This document shows positions 46,188 through 54,706 of a DNA stretch of 64,000 nucleotides, piece after piece. The stretch's first letter is position 1; each line of letters opens with the position of its first letter. The notes under the pieces are model-generated. The model saw nothing but the letters and a program-made list of their open reading frames with translations. It was not told where the DNA came from and searched no databases. The stretch comes from Candidatus Poribacteria bacterium (lineage in GTDB: Bacteria > Poribacteria > WGA-4E > WGA-3G). Location: positions 2,703,521-2,767,520 of the forward strand of contig OZ246979.1 in NCBI GenBank assembly GCA_965232545.1, written 5' to 3'. Both the position numbers and the translations under genes were made by a program.

Positions 46188-47684
46188 TTACCTGTGGGCC
46201 CAATAATCTTGCTTACCTCCTGGGGTCTTGACAAAGAGTTCCCCGCTGTTAGTGTAAAAGATCTCTTTTTCCTGTTGCGGTGAAATTACAAGTTCAACTA
46301 CCCATAAATCTTCTGCAGTGCTTCCTTGTAAATCGTAAACATTATGAAATTCAATATCCCAATCTTCATCACTAATCGGAGGACGTATACCCCAAAGCTT
46401 TTCTGATACTTTACGGCGGACCTTATCTCTTTGTTGTTCATCAAGAGTTACACCTACCGTGATTCTATCATCCCTTATTCCCCAGAAAATACGTCCGCCT
46501 TCACTATTGAGAAAGGCGACAGCGTATTCATCAGCGGTATTTGTAATTGAACCAACTGGATTTCTGCCCTTGACTTCCTTAAATTCATAGAGGCGTGTTT
46601 CCTCAAAAGGAACAGATTGCCCCTGAATAAAATCAACTTGGGTTGGTTCGGTTAATTTTGCCCTATCAGTTGCATGAATTAGGTGTTCCTCAGCTAACCG
46701 TTTATTTTCACGTAACTCGGAAAGTTTACCTTCTGAATCCAACTTGATACCTACCTCAAAATATTCAATTGCTTTTTGATATTGCTTAAGCCGGAGAAAA
46801 GTTACACCCTTGCCGTTTAATATAATCGCTTTCTGAACTGGATCTTGCACCGCGCCAAGTGCTTTATCAAAATTCTCAAGGGCAGCTTGGAATTCGTCAA
46901 GATGAAGAAACGCCATACCATCATAACAGATATTCATTGGATCAATATACGAAACCAATTGTCCGGCACGTAGATCCTCTGCTGCCCTGGATAAGGAAAA
47001 ATTCCCTCCTGTCATTGCATCAATATATCTGCCATGCAAAGTTGCCAAGCTCACTTGAGTCCTTTGTACCGCCACCCGAATTTGGAGTTTAGCATAAAGA
47101 ATACCGTAAGCGGAAACGCTCATATCAGCAATAAGTCCTTCTGATAATCGGGAACCGAAATCTGAACGAAGTATGTGAGTAAACCAATCAAGAGTTGCAT
47201 CCGTAGGATTTAACTGATTCCAATGTGCCCACGATTCACGAAACTTGTCCGTGTCATTGTGCAAAGCGAACAGCAGAGCTGAAGGGGACACGTGTAATAT
47301 TCTACGAATCCCCTCTTTCTCCTCATCAGCTTGATATATTGAATTAAGATAAAAACGGCTAAGAATATAATCAACTAACTCAAAGTCAATTCTGGCAAAG
47401 TAATACTGAGAAGTAATAAACTGCTCTGCCTGCTCCTTATATTCCTCTTTATCCGATAAAAATTCTTGGGCTAATTGTGCAAAAGTCTCGATGTCTTTTT
47501 TGACAACATAGTGGTCAATCTTATCATTGCTTATTTTTTCGCAAATATTTTCTGAGACAAGTGCTGCAAGTTGCTCCTCTATAGCTACCAACGACTCACC
47601 AATCTCATTAGTAATTTCGTTGGCAGGGTTGAGAGTACAATCTAATAAGTGCAAGATAATTTTTTTACGGATTAAAGTATCCAT
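46188..47684 (-). CDS. TPR-repeat protein with a C-terminal AlbA_2 / Schlafen-like putative DNA-binding domain.
   Basis: TPR-like segment (KALGAVQDPVQKAIILNGKGVTFLRLKQYQKAIEYFEVGIKLD). The C-terminus (RLYEFKEVKG...AVAFLNSEGGRIFWGIRDDRITVGV) matches the AlbA_2 (PF04326) pattern seen in Schlafen-like defense proteins. Confidence 0.6.
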   Translation of the reverse strand: MDTLIRKKIILHLLDCTLNPANEITNEIGESLVAIEEQLAALVSENICEKISNDKIDHYVVKKDIETFAQLAQEFLSDKEEYKEQAEQFITSQYYFARIDFELVDYILSRFYLNSIYQADEEKEGIRRILHVSPSALLFALHNDTDKFRESWAHWNQLNPTDATLDWFTHILRSDFGSRLSEGLIADMSVSAYGILYAKLQIRVAVQRTQVSLATLHGRYIDAMTGGNFSLSRAAEDLRAGQLVSYIDPMNICYDGMAFLHLDEFQAALENFDKALGAVQDPVQKAIILNGKGVTFLRLKQYQKAIEYFEVGIKLDSEGKLSELRENKRLAEEHLIHATDRAKLTEPTQVDFIQGQSVPFEETRLYEFKEVKGRNPVGSITNTADEYAVAFLNSEGGRIFWGIRDDRITVGVTLDEQQRDKVRRKVSEKLWGIRPPISDEDWDIEFHNVYDLQGSTAEDLWVVELVISPQQEKEIFYTNSGELFVKTPGGKQDYWAHR

Positions 47685-47889
47685 TGCCTTCTCTATGTTT
47701 TACGATTTGCGAGATGCGTTCAATTTTCCTTGTCAATTTCCCGAATTACGATATTTAATGTCGTAGTTGGTGATGAAGTCAAATTTGTAACTATGCAGTC
47801 CGTAATAGATGGGAAAATATGACCGATTGTGAACACATTAAATATAAAATCATTTACCTAATCACCAACTCGATTAGTTATCTAATCGG

Positions 47890-48453
47890 TTACTTTCCTA
47901 ACTTAACCATACGAACCGTTAATCCCGAATTTGGTCCGGGTGGTAAACCGAGAGCAGGCTCAACGCCTTTAGATTTTCTCAAATCTTCTAGTAGTGCCTC
48001 AACCGATAACTTTCTCCCTAACAAAGCTTCGGATTCGGGGCGAGGTTGACTCACGGATTTTCCACGATACACCTCAACTTGATTTACGCCCTCCTCTATC
48101 GCACGAATACATAAACCTCTTACATAATATCGATTAAACTCCCCTTCACTAAGAGTGTCGGGAGCGTTTACAGGAACCTTAGCATTCGTGAAACCACCAC
48201 CCCGCTTTCTACGTTGCTCGTAATCTTTCATATAACCTTGACTGCGTAATTGTTGGGCAAGCCAAGTGTCATTATAGTGCTTTATAGCCTCTTTAAGAAG
48301 AGAAACATAATTCCGCTCTCCGAGTCCATTAAGGCGTGGGCTCATATAGAGATTCCCATTAGATAAGTCTGAATCAACTTCACTTAACATGAATGAACGC
48401 GTGCTTTCATCCAAATTTTCGTAATGTAGTGCCACAGCTATTTCTCCTCGCAT
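47890..48453 (-). CDS. Hypothetical 187-aa protein. It is a cassette gene flanked by duplicated copies of the methyltransferase 3' end.
   Basis: Clean ORF with balanced composition and no recognisable motif. It lies between direct repeats at about 47745-47790 and about 48715-48760. Confidence 0.45.
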   Translation of the reverse strand: MRGEIAVALHYENLDESTRSFMLSEVDSDLSNGNLYMSPRLNGLGERNYVSLLKEAIKHYNDTWLAQQLRSQGYMKDYEQRRKRGGGFTNAKVPVNAPDTLSEGEFNRYYVRGLCIRAIEEGVNQVEVYRGKSVSQPRPESEALLGRKLSVEALLEDLRKSKGVEPALGLPPGPNSGLTVRMVKLGK

Positions 48454-48699
48454 GCATTTTAGAATTTATGTTCCACGCTTGAATATAGATAATCCAAGGA
48501 AACGTATAAAAATCTGTGTTCCTATTTTCCGATTTTGCTCGATTGTGTTGACATTACAGTATTCTCAGGAAGTTCGACTAAATAGTGCCAGGCAGAGTGA
48601 AAACCTTCCGAACCGTGTTTCAACGTCAACAAATATTAAGTATACCACATCGCGGAAGAAAAGTCAAATGCATTGCATTTTTGCGTTCGGTTCACTGCC

Positions 48700-51600
48700 T
48701 CACTTCCCCAAGCCCATCCGATATTTGATGTCGTAGTTGATGATGAAGTCTAATTCCTCATCTGTGAAGCCGTAGTGTTTCGCAAGCACATGGTCGATTT
48801 CATCTATGATGTGTTTAGATTTTTGAATCTTGAATAACTGCGTTTCAGTGCGTCCAGTCCGCTTTTGAACGCGAACTTGCATTATGCTATTACATTGTAG
48901 ATCCTCCAAATACACTTTTCCGAGTTCAGCGAGTTGAGAATCATAAAGAGCAGACTTAGGGATTGGAAAATTCTTAATATCAGATGCAGAAAGATTTCGG
49001 CAGTCCGTCGTAATCGTGTACCACCACCAGAATAAATCACTACTCAAAACCGCAATGACAGGTCTCAATATTTCAGAAGTTTCAACACTAAACGCCCGCT
49101 CAGCCGTAGAGTTCCCTGATTTACCATTAACCCTAAACGCCGGTTGGAAATCTGTGAACACTTTCCAATATAATCCACCTGCTACGCGGTGATAAACTCG
49201 ATGTTTACTTTGCGCCATGAATAACCTTAAAACAGTTTTGACTGCGGTACATTTCTCAAGTAAATCGGTTTCAATTTCCATTCCCAACTTTGGTGCCCAA
49301 GTTGCTGTTCTATGGCGTGGTATTTCCACATAACCAATATTATACATTAGGGAATCTCGATTATCGGAAGACCATTTCTGACAGTTTGTAGAAAAAGTCC
49401 TATCTTGCCTTGAAGGAGTTGCAATGAAAATAGTTAGTAGAAGGTTTACCATATCAAACAGTTTAGCAGGACGCCATGAATAGTTGGCATACCAAACATT
49501 ACGACTTTCTTCTAAAATGGTTTGTATGGTCTGCATTCGTTGTGTGGAAACTAATGCTAAAGGAACAATCATGCTCATGCAACCATGTTGACTTAAAAGT
49601 TGGGCACTGCGATCTATGCACATTGCATGGATTGCTTTGGTTTCGTAGCTGGATAGGCTATTTGGAGGTAAATAATCGACCTGTCTTAATTCAAGGTACG
49701 GCGGATTGCCAATAATCACATCAAAGCCACCGTCCTTCAGGATCCCGTAAAACGCAATGAACCAGTGGAACGGCTTATGTGAAGAAAGCCATGCTTGATA
49801 AGCAGCATTGGTATCCGCCGAGTTGAGATTTATTCTGCTTATCGTTTGTAAAGTGGGGGGGGGGCACACTATATTCGCCAGCAAGGTATTCGTTGAGTTC
49901 GTTTTCTAACGCCCTGAGTTTATCCTGTAACGCTTGTTTGTCTGCTAGGTGCACATCACCACCTAATTCCGTCTGCTGCTCCCGAAACAGGAAAGACAGC
50001 CACTCAACATCTTCAACCTTTTCTTCAATGCGCTTCATGCTATCGTCGAAGTCAAATTTACCGGTGACTGCTTCCTTCACCTCATCGTAGGAAGTATAAC
50101 CGACGAGGGTATTCCCTGCCTGAATGTTAAAGTCGATGTCTGGTAGCGGCTCAATCCGTCTCACGTCCTCAAGTTGCGCTACCATTTTAAGGAAGAGGCG
50201 CAGTTTGCAAATCTCAATTGCCTCGTCCATGATGTCTACGCCGTAGAGGTTGTTGATAATGATGGATTTGAGGATGAAGTAACGGTGATTCGGGTGCTGC
50301 TTGATGTCCTCAAGGATATTGCGGAAGTCGTTATATTTACGAGAAGGGTGTGATTCAGAAATCATTTCTATCTCGTCCAAGAAGACTTGCATCCGATCAA
50401 GACATACCTCATAGAGCGGTTCGAGGATATTCAGTGCGGCAAATAGGAACGCCCCGGAACCACAGGTGGGGTCGAGGATTGTCACCTGTGTGATGGCTTT
50501 CCAGAAGGCGCGGAGCAGTTCGGGCCCCTCACAATTCTCGATGACATCCTGCGCGAATTGGCGGATATTGAGATTGTAGGTAATCAGATCGTTGATGTCA
50601 CGGACCTCTCCGTTTTTGAGTTTCGCTCGGACAGTTTCATAACGTTGTCGCCGTGCGACGACCTCTCGCCAAATCTCTGTTGGCAAGGCATATTCATCGG
50701 ACGCGAGTGTGTTCCAACAATCGGTACGTTTGGAGACATCGCCAATTCCCACAGCAATTTCCTCTGGCAGATCGAATTCAACACCTTTTTTGACAGCATC
50801 GTAGATATAGCGGTCAGGATCTTCTTGTAGGAGGTGCCAGACGGATGCGTCGCCTTCAAAGGCGATTTTGCACGCTTTTCGCGCCTTGTCAAAAAGGCAT
50901 GGAATGATGGCATTTTTGCTGATGTAGTCCGTGATGTCCTCTTTAGTGTAGTAGGCACCCATCTGCTTCTGGTTGATGTATTTCTCAAAAATACAACCGA
51001 GGACATCTGGGTTGATCTCGTTGTCGTTCCGCAGCGGACGATCGTCGAGGTGCCACTGGTATTGATCAAAGAACTTGAAAAGCTGATCGAATGCCTTGTC
51101 AGGAATCTCAATGTTTTCGCCGTGGAGGGTCTCAATTTGGTGTTTCTGAAAGATGCCGCCGTTGAGGTAAGGGATTTTACCCAGTAGGCGTTTCACCTCT
51201 CTGCTTCGTTCGGCTTCCGGTTTCGCAAATCCTTCAAAGAAGAGGGGACAGAGGAGCTTTTTGTAATATTGATCGGTCTCCTGTTCTTGACCGTGTGCCA
51301 ATTTGGTGCATAGATAGTTGGGGTCGTTATCAAGAAAGCCTTTCTTCTGAATGAAGTAGATGAACATCAGACGGTTGAGCATGACGGAGGCGTACCAGCG
51401 TTGCATCTCTTCATCAGGAATACCTTTGAGAAATTTAAGGAATGCGTCATGCTCTTTCTTGAAACGGTCATAGAAACGTTTGGTGACTTTTTCAACGTCA
51501 AAACTTGCTCGAACCCGACTCGTCACGTCAAACAGTGTAAGTTGCCCTTCTTCCTCAAAACTAAAGGCAATGGCTTCAAGTTTTTGGATCAGCAAGTTCC

Positions 51601-51976
51601 CGGGTTGTGTTGTATGATACCGATGTTCACGACATGCTGTGGGTTTGCCGTGCTCTCGTCTTACCCACTGCCAGATTTGTGTATTTTTTTCCACATCGGT
51701 GTAAATGATAAAGTTCTCGTGGAAAGATTTTGCAACTTCCTTTTGAATCTTGCGGCGAGTGGCATAATCCGGCATGTGGTCATTAGATGTAGTTTGTGAA
51801 CACTCAAAGACGACCATTCCGCGTTTTTCGGCGATGGCGGTGAGTTGGTATTCGATTCCGTCTACCGTGATATTGAGTGGTTGGATCCGGTGAAAATCCC
51901 AACCGAGTTCTTCAATAAAGAGGCTTTCAAATTCGGATTCTTTGAGATATTGACGTGTTTCTCGGACGTTAAGCAT
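48700..51976 (-). CDS. Large N6-adenine DNA methyltransferase (gamma-like motif order; PglX / Type IIG-like). It is interrupted by a +1 frameshift at a G10 (C10 on the coding strand) homopolymer and is a phase-variable gene in the OFF state.
   Basis: The upstream frame (49775-52144 in the ORF track) carries AdoMet motif I ILDPTCGSGAFLFAAL and the N-terminal module ...WYASVMLNRLMFIYFIQKKGFLDN... The downstream frame (48700-49884) carries motif IV VIIGNPPYL. The two frames meet at 10 consecutive C; 9 or 12 would give a single protein of about 1092 aa (...EYSVPPPTLQTISR...). The start is refined to the ATG at 51976, with an AAGGAAG RBS. Confidence 0.75.
49855..49864. repeat. Homopolymeric G10 tract (C10 on the coding strand), a simple-sequence contingency locus inside the methyltransferase gene.
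   Basis: aaagtGGGGGGGGGGcacact, read directly. Coordinates are within about 1 bp. Confidence 0.85.
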
Positions 51977-52034
51977 TAGTATCTTCCTTTTGTCATGTTC
52001 AGTGGAAAGCGTCCCAGCAATTTCTGAGAGTGTT

Positions 52035-52721
52035 TTAGTCGTAGTCCTCGTCCTCATCGAGTGCCTCCGGGTCCAGGTCCATTCCGAGGTAAAGCCCCAT
52101 GGGAGCGAGTCCTGCTTTGACTTTTTGGAGCGATCCCATCCCAAAATTACTGATCAGTAGTAGTTCTTCTTCCGTTTTTTCGACGAGTGTGCGTAAGGTA
52201 TAGATGTTTGCCCTTTCGAGACAATTGTGGGCTCGGGTAGGGAGTCTGAGTGCGGCGATAGATAGGGTTAAGTAATCATCCCGCTCCTGTTCCGTCACAT
52301 CAGCGATCTCCGGCTCCCTGTAGATGTTAGGGAACAGCGGGTCCCGTTCATGTTGGGCCTCGATAATATCTATCCAGGGCGAATCCAATTCCTGTTCTGC
52401 CTCAGTAATATCTGCCAAGACATCCCGTTCCGGATTGAGCAAAGTTCTTTGGAGCGAAGGAGGGAGGGATTCCCAAATCCTCGCGTAATGCTCCGATTCT
52501 GACGCAGCTTCGCACCAACGGTCGAGAAAGGTCCGAAGCGTCTCGCTATCTTCCTTCCCCTCTGAAATCTGTGTTATGACTTGGAATAATTCCTTAAAAA
52601 ACACAATGAGGTCTTCTACCGGTAACCATTTGACCCAATCGTAGGGCTTTGGAATTGGAACAGATTTGACGAGCAATTCGTCGTCTATAAGGTATCCGAC
52701 AACAAGTTTAGCATCTTTCAT
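52035..52721 (-). CDS. Hypothetical protein with a C-terminal domain resembling the RNA polymerase alpha-subunit C-terminal domain (alpha-CTD, HhH). Paralog 1.
   Basis: The C-terminus LSIAALRLPTRAHNCLERANIYTLRTLVEKTEEELLLISNFGMGSLQKVKAGLAPMGLYLGMD matches the RpoA alpha-CTD pattern (LSVRS.NCLK...I.T...L....E.EL....N.G.KSL.EI...L...GL.LGM). The start is refined to MKDAKLVVGY. Confidence 0.55.
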   Translation of the reverse strand: MKDAKLVVGYLIDDELLVKSVPIPKPYDWVKWLPVEDLIVFFKELFQVITQISEGKEDSETLRTFLDRWCEAASESEHYARIWESLPPSLQRTLLNPERDVLADITEAEQELDSPWIDIIEAQHERDPLFPNIYREPEIADVTEQERDDYLTLSIAALRLPTRAHNCLERANIYTLRTLVEKTEEELLLISNFGMGSLQKVKAGLAPMGLYLGMDLDPEALDEDEDYD

Positions 52722-52830
52722 CTGGAGTCTCCTTGTAGCAAGAATGTTGAATTTACGCCAATTATACATGACGTACTGATAGCATTCAAGATTTTTTGGA
52801 GGTCGGAGTTGCCAATCCTTCCTGCAAGTG

Positions 52831-53660
52831 TTAGAGTGGCATCCTCGGTATCTCTGTCTTCAAACCGAGAATCGAGCATCTCAGCATTCTGCGATCCCAT
52901 GGGTAGCGGTTCATCGTTCTCAATGGCGTGTCGGTCAATCCAGCGCGTGCTTCCTGCGACAAGTGATACGCCATTTTGATATAAATGTGATAGGGCGGAA
53001 TAAGTTCCTCACGCGCCCAACTCTGCTCGATAATCTCAACCAATTCCTTAGAAATATCGATGCACCATCTGTCATTCCACCGGTCTTCAAACCAGTCCTC
53101 CAATTTTTCGCAAGCATCCGAGTCAACAACATCAATATTGAGTTCTCCCTGATGCGACAGCCCAGAAAGCGTCAAATTGCTACTGCCGAGGTAACCCACA
53201 GTCGGTGCGACGAGGTCGGAGCGATAGATGAGATAGAGTTTCGCATGGAGGGTGTGTCGGAGAAAAAGTTTTACCTTTACCTTCTCGTCCCGAAGCTGCT
53301 GCGCCAATTGACGTAACCCTCTTTCGTCTGCACGCGTTGGTACACCGACGGTTAACTGTTCTCGGAACTCCTCTGCTAACCTCCGTTTCAAACGGAGTGC
53401 TGTTTGATTGTCGATCCCACCGTCCTGCTTAGCGAGTCGTTTGGCCTCGCAGAGTTCTTCTTCGGCCAAGCGTTGCATCCCGACAAGTAAACGGCAGCAT
53501 TCGCCTTCACCCCATCCCAATTCTCAATATAAGATCCGAGTCCTCTCCATCCCCGGAGGTTAAAATAACCGACACAAAAGTCGGCGTATGTGGCAGTTTC
53601 AAGTGTCTGTTGGAGTGCGGGAAGTAGGGGTTGGTAGATATTATCAAAAATACGGGGCAT
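52831..53660 (-). pseudogene. PLD-family (HKD-motif) nuclease gene split by a frameshift (N-terminal fragment 53388-53660, C-terminal part 52831-53520).
   Basis: The N-terminal fragment is MPRIFDNIYQPLLPALQQTLETATYADFCVGYFNLRGW... The C-terminal frame carries [11 protein letters not shown]...GSSNLT (an HxK...GSxN PLD signature). The two frames overlap around 53470-53540 with no long homopolymer. Its ATG abuts the stop of the upstream alpha-CTD-like gene (TAAATG). Confidence 0.6.
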
Positions 53661-54455
53661 TTAGAATGATGCCTCCTCGTCGTCCTCGTCGAACAGATCC
53701 ATTCCCAGGTAAAGCCCCAAGCCAGCGAGTTTGGATTTGATTTCGTGGAGCGTCGCTTGTCCGAGCCCCTGGTATTCCAGGAGGTCCCATTCCATTTTTG
53801 CGACGAGTTCTCGGACGGTTTTGATATTTTCATTTTTAAGACAGTTGTGGGCACGAGCAGAGAGTTGAAGCTTGGAAATGTCGTATGCTAAATGTTTCTC
53901 CTGCTCTGCTTCCGTCACGTCACGTACCACCGGTTCAGCATCACCAGCGTGCATGGGTGAACGGTAATCCGGTTCCACGCCAACGATATCTACCCAGGGC
54001 GAATCCAATTCCTGTTCTGCCTCCAAAATATCTGCCAGGACATCCCGTTCGGAACTGATCATGGCTTTTCCGATGAAACCGGCGAGAGAATTCAAAAGTG
54101 TCGCGGGATCTTGCCCTTTTAAGGCAGCTTCTAAAGCATCTACGCTCCAATCGGTGACGACGGTCGGAGGGGTCTTGCTATCTTCTTCAAATATCTCAGA
54201 ATCTTCCTCGCCTAAGGCTATTTCGCGCCAACTTAAGGCAATTTCATGCCAAAAGTCGAGAAAAGTCTGAAGCGTTTTGCTATCTTCCTTTTCCTCTGAA
54301 ATTTGGATCATCAATTCCAGTAATTCCCCAAAAAACTGAGCAAGTTCCTCGTTCGCTAACCACTTGATCCAATCGTGAGATTCTGGAATCGTAAAAGATT
54401 TGACGAACATTTCGTCATCCATAAGGTATCCAACGACGAGTTTGGGCATTTTCAT
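53661..54455 (-). CDS. Hypothetical protein with a C-terminal RNA polymerase alpha-CTD-like domain. Paralog 2.
   Basis: Shares the N-terminal block KLVVGYLxDDExxVKS...ERDVLADIxEAEQELDSPWxDI and the C-terminal LSARAHNCLKNENIKTVRELVAKMEWDLLEYQGLGQATLHEIKSKLAGLGLYLGMD with paralog 1. Confidence 0.55.
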   Translation of the reverse strand: MKMPKLVVGYLMDDEMFVKSFTIPESHDWIKWLANEELAQFFGELLELMIQISEEKEDSKTLQTFLDFWHEIALSWREIALGEEDSEIFEEDSKTPPTVVTDWSVDALEAALKGQDPATLLNSLAGFIGKAMISSERDVLADILEAEQELDSPWVDIVGVEPDYRSPMHAGDAEPVVRDVTEAEQEKHLAYDISKLQLSARAHNCLKNENIKTVRELVAKMEWDLLEYQGLGQATLHEIKSKLAGLGLYLGMDLFDEDDEEASF

Positions 54456-54706
54456 GTGCTATCTCCGTGTAGTCGGAATATAAGATTTCTACGGATTATA
54501 CACGAGGCATTAATAAAGTTCAATTTTTTTGTGAAGGGGTAAATTTTTGAGAATTGGTTTGACACAATTTTGACTTTCCATTAAACTATCTCCACAAATT
54601 GCAGTTCTTGCGTTCAATTTATTATCGTCAGCGGCGGATTCAGTGCCGTTTCCAAAGATTGCGCCATTCGGGCACAATTTGTCTTTGCTTTACATTGGAG
54701 GCTCTC

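Follow-up and report, generated by a model that had tools for sequence, protein, structure and literature searches.

Does the gene array at 46188–54523 of the window, the 64-kb stretch of DNA analysed here, encode a new functional defence module? The array occupies a variable defence hotspot in the chromosome of Candidatus Poribacteria, a sponge symbiont, between ThuA/nuo and DprA/purF. Its ORFs all lie on the minus strand, as the first-pass annotation had described, and Pfam matches agree with the domains proposed there (RNA_pol_A_CTD, PLDc_2, Eco57I/MmeI_Mtase, and SLFN_AlbA_2 with TPR). The assignment to a defence or restriction-modification (RM) island also holds, as does that of the methyltransferase to a PglX/Type IIG-like gamma class. 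While the array itself was correctly recognized, its seven genes come to six gene loci, two of them pseudogenes, and the locus of the 187-aa protein is a later insertion. The ORFs still intact are those of the two alpha-CTD proteins, the TPR-AlbA_2 protein and the inserted 187-aa protein.

The intact operon in related genomes

Relatives within Candidatus Poribacteria carry an intact operon at the same chromosomal site, again between ThuA/nuo and DprA/purF. The intact order is an alpha-CTD protein, a 1132-aa PLD-SNF2 nuclease-helicase, a second alpha-CTD or a ParE toxin-antitoxin pair, and a methyltransferase of ∼1085 aa. The loci differ in the slot between helicase and methyltransferase: L001 and L016 run from alpha-CTD to PLD-SNF2 to methyltransferase, L002, L007 and L011 hold an antitoxin and ParE pair in the slot, and L009 and L018 hold a second alpha-CTD, as do L020, L024, L025 and the window. 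The toxin-antitoxin pair found there in other strains shares both its promoter and its N-domain with the alpha-CTD copies. Every surveyed locus with both helicase and methyltransferase has at least one alpha-CTD gene, the upstream copy being absent from L020, L024 and L025, and wherever an alpha-CTD gene and the helicase gene occur together, in six loci, the TAAATG junction between them is kept. The alpha-CTD loci all belong to one lineage, and most to one chromosomal site. Conservation extends to only part of the gene set first grouped together: the alpha-CTD, helicase and methyltransferase genes are conserved, while the 187-aa gene is absent from relatives and the TPR-AlbA_2 gene occasional.

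Degradation of the operon in the window

The PLD gene of the window is a pseudogene of the PLD-SNF2 nuclease-helicase (52826..53660, minus strand), recognized by Pfam PLDc_2, by PADLOC and NCBIfam profiles and by comparison with intact genes. It keeps codons 1–244 (∼244) and a 39-codon internal scrap corresponding to residues 594–632 (window 52826–52942, tblastn), and the rest of the helicase sequence has been lost through two internal deletions relative to the 1132-aa gene. The match to intact helicase genes of 1132–1138 aa ends at 52931, the PADLOC HKD+Snf2 and NCBIfam matches reach only profile positions ∼67–200 of ∼900, and the gene is split into two ORFs where a G run at 53509 has lost 1 bp. 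Alpha-CTD1 (53661–54455) is joined to the PLD ORF by a TAAATG stop/start, and the PLD stop at 52831 is followed after about 110 bp by the start of alpha-CTD2 at 52721; this junction and the gaps of 110 and 58 bp are as first reported. It had also been suggested that the PLD protein could be a BfiI/NgoFVII-style nuclease acting beside the methyltransferase. We reject this stand-alone nuclease, since the gene is a deleted, frameshifted stump of the helicase, and the ORF is without a DNA-binding C-terminal domain. In favour of such a nuclease, the match to the N-terminal PLD model of Pfam RE_NgoFVII is slightly over the cut-off (27.6 versus 23.8 bits).

The second pseudogene (48700..51976, minus strand) is that of an N6-adenine methyltransferase of the Eco57I/MmeI class, whose C-terminal region is for target recognition. 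It is now out of frame and divided between ORFs at 49775–52144 and 48700–49884. Its probable start at 51976 lies 58 bp beyond the alpha-CTD2 stop at 52035. The PADLOC profile PDLC03628 runs contiguously over both ORFs (positions 3–716 and 717–1095 of 1100) and matches the L009 methyltransferase at full length with 1170 bits. Pfam Eco57I and MmeI_Mtase also match, and the translations show motif I (DPTCGSGAF) as well as motif IV (NPPY). Within the gene is a G10 tract (49855..49864, plus strand; C10 on the coding strand), which a run-length scan finds to be the sole G/C run of at least 7 in the 64 kb, where 0.04–0.05 runs of at least 10 are expected. The ∼1090-aa methyltransferase first proposed stands to the extent that nine bases at the tract (G9) would restore an ORF of roughly that length. 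The window itself has two ORFs, and the frame break relative to relatives combines tract length with a 2-bp deletion just 3′ of the tract. The same tract insertion is C8 in L002, where the ORF is intact, and C11 in L011, where it is broken.

Downstream of the tract is a variable region, presumably the target-recognition domain (48820..49689, minus strand), delimited by nucleotide comparison with relatives. It shares no nucleotide similarity with L002, L009 or L011, whose N-terminal 2.3 kb are 85–89% identical, while the L001 methyltransferase gene, this region included, can be aligned from end to end at ∼79%. The C-terminal part of the methyltransferase is variable, and apparently swapped, between strains.

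The remaining two genes seem to stand outside the operon. The 187-aa protein (47890..48453, minus strand) has no Pfam match, as the first reading of it as an unassigned protein implied, and the gene is present in no relative's locus and has a conserved partner nowhere. Beyond it, at 47749..47785 (minus strand), what is left of the 3′ end of an older methyltransferase forms a direct repeat with 48719–48755 (37 nt, 92% identity). When the L007 sequence is read directly, the methyltransferase end adjoins the TPR-AlbA_2 start. These comparisons indicate that the 187-aa gene is an independent, unrelated later insertion. The 498-aa TPR and AlbA_2 (Schlafen-like) protein (46188..47684, minus strand; Pfam SLFN_AlbA_2 3.5e-13, TPR_1 5.6e-9) has orthologues in L001, L007 and L016, where they take the equivalent place, and none at that position in L002, L009, L018, L020 or L025. 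It is a variable, only occasional neighbour at the island end.

The system in the window is dead, with its helicase deleted, its PLD stump frameshifted and the frame of its methyltransferase broken at a C/G tract prone to slippage, and it is therefore not a functional novel module.

The alpha-CTD proteins and their promoters

Alpha-CTD1 (264 aa; 53661..54455, minus strand) and alpha-CTD2 (228 aa from the MKDAKLVVGY start; 52035..52721, minus strand) match Pfam PF03118 RNA_pol_A_CTD with E-values of 3.4e-19 and 6.7e-17. Alpha-CTD1 consists of an antitoxin-like N-domain (1–75), a variable linker, an ERDVLADI-EAEQELDSPW motif and an RpoA-CTD domain (∼183–254); alpha-CTD2 has the same architecture with a shorter linker. 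The two are 43% identical, in keeping with their description as paralogues, and alpha-CTD2 shares 95.6% identity with P0091, which occupies the helicase-methyltransferase slot of L009. The resemblance to RpoA survives profile, solved-structure and fold tests. A PDB profile search with the alpha-CTD returned RpoA in 55 of 55 matches (best 9.3e-20), the AF2 model of alpha-CTD1 has a pLDDT of 81–91 over the CTD, and Foldseek gives TMt values of 0.85–0.96 to alpha-CTD structures, DNA-bound ones among them, with 42–48% identity to solved alpha-CTDs in the alignments. The N-domain is modelled at low confidence (pLDDT 39–71), and a search for a solved-structure relative of it found none. It is 42% identical to an L007 ParE-linked antitoxin (E 7e-19), and the homologous antitoxin gene overlaps the ParE gene; the N-domain is also found fused to two alpha-CTDs or, by sequence reading, to a HicB-like domain. 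These proteins are true homologues of the RpoA-CTD, joined to an antitoxin-type N-domain that is rare, and the full-length family is found only in Poribacteria.

Residues corresponding to the E. coli DNA contacts R265, N268, C269, G296 and S299 are kept. In place of K298, through which E. coli alpha makes a key contact with the UP element, the two window proteins have A or G, and position 297 is not lysine either, which counts against promoter binding by these proteins.

Both genes are preceded by a predicted promoter cassette consisting of an A-tract, TTGAAC, a 17-nt spacer and TATAAT. P1 lies upstream of alpha-CTD1 (54495..54523, minus strand; consensus scan), and a second copy, P2, upstream of alpha-CTD2 (52761..52789, minus strand; consensus and pattern scans). 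The pattern TTGAAN{14,18}TRTATAAT occurs twice in the window, where 0.01 occurrences are expected. Among relatives the predicted cassette is kept 5′ of every alpha-CTD or antitoxin gene, always about 70 nt from the start, and the A-run 5′ of the −35 box is invariant and UP-like.

Proposed mechanism and alternative roles

By family resemblance, the methyltransferase of the intact operon would read a short asymmetric site and mark host DNA. The PLD-SNF2 subunit would rely on it for target recognition, translocate on ATP and, like Type I, ISP or III enzymes, cut DNA that lacks the mark. L011, with an intact helicase-nuclease and a broken methyltransferase, fits a nuclease requiring its methyltransferase; the PADLOC label for the methyltransferase family, “Type IIG”, counts against this explanation, as the N-terminus of the enzyme may then carry a nuclease of its own. 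The alpha-CTD proteins, first suggested to be regulators or adaptors, are best read as regulators, probably autoregulators of the operon. By binding the A-tract in their own promoters they may control how strongly, and when, nuclease and methyltransferase are expressed, with the N-domain probably serving in dimerisation or partner binding.

It is unlikely, by our estimate, that the alpha-CTD genes encode general transcription factors of Poribacteria, or regulators of whatever cargo the hotspot holds, linked to the helicase and methyltransferase by synteny and not by function. The family is found in a single phylum only, and alpha-CTD ORFs are intact at loci that lack helicase and methyltransferase (L004, L006, L010, L019, L021 and L023), so they may have a role beyond the operon. 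The cargo beside them is an NsnB-like ATPase system in L004 and L023, a short AlbA_2 gene only in L006, and a PhyH gene in L021. Vertical inheritance, and not function, could in part account for the linkage to the operon. However, helicase or methyltransferase scraps remain at several of these loci (L006, L010, L019), so RM loss there is recent. The specific placement of the second alpha-CTD between helicase and methyltransferase, its replacement in that slot by a toxin-antitoxin pair that shares its promoter and N-domain, and the conserved TAAATG junction also speak against mere synteny.

We hold it to be quite improbable that the alpha-CTD is a sensor or decoy, mimicking RNA polymerase alpha-CTD for phage factors while the antitoxin-like part releases or activates PLD-SNF2 or a ParE-type toxin in a guard-type trigger. 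Such a role would suit the closeness of the domain to RpoA, its fusion to an antitoxin-type domain with a ParE partner elsewhere, the abutment of its stop on the nuclease-helicase start, and the alpha-CTD-like domain in BREX PglW, a proposed sensing protein. The alpha-CTD proteins also diverge much faster than their neighbours (the L007 alpha-CTD is 48% identical to alpha-CTD1, while L007 ThuA is 93% identical to that of L001 and its helicase 90% to that of L009), and allele classes shift between the two alpha-CTD positions. This divergence, however, falls mostly in the length-variable linker and not on the CTD surface; by our reading, the E. coli 261-determinant position is not conserved, and the conserved promoter A-tract offers a simpler, DNA-binding explanation.

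A functional novel module of stand-alone PLD nuclease and phase-variable methyltransferase, with two alpha-CTDs, the 187-aa protein and TPR-AlbA_2, is hardly credible: its domains are all present and co-directional, RE_NgoFVII passes its cut-off and a single G-tract slip would restore the methyltransferase ORF, but the PLD ORF is a frameshifted 5′ stump, L001, L009 and L016 contradict it, the 187-aa gene is absent from related genomes and has no conserved partner, and TPR-AlbA_2 is present in some loci only.

Relation to known systems

The operon fails the membership tests for BREX, DISARM and Hma/BR, which upholds the first-pass view that it is neither canonical BREX nor DISARM. The first-pass view that alpha-CTD-like domains are not standard in defence systems needs qualifying, as there is a precedent in BREX PglW, which has one. 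The role we propose for the alpha-CTD proteins is the same as that of controller proteins or ribbon-helix-helix repressors in other RM systems. The PLD-SNF2 and methyltransferase pair is also found on Synechocystis pSYSX, Pelobacter pPRO1, and Rhodococcus and Anabaena plasmids (helicases 40–60%, methyltransferases 46–50% identical). On pSYSX, a 67-aa protein, ribbon-helix-helix by eye, lies directly upstream of the helicase, and VapBC fills the helicase-methyltransferase slot.

Taken as a whole, we think it rather probable that the window holds a degraded copy of a phylum-conserved, ATP-dependent RM-like operon with alpha-CTD proteins as its own autoregulators. Its core, the PLD-SNF2 and ∼1100-aa methyltransferase pair, is an already existing, unnamed RM-like mobile cassette, widespread on plasmids of several phyla, and so not the new module first supposed. 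Literature searches found no description of alpha-CTD proteins attached to such an operon, and in Poribacteria they appear to be its new part.

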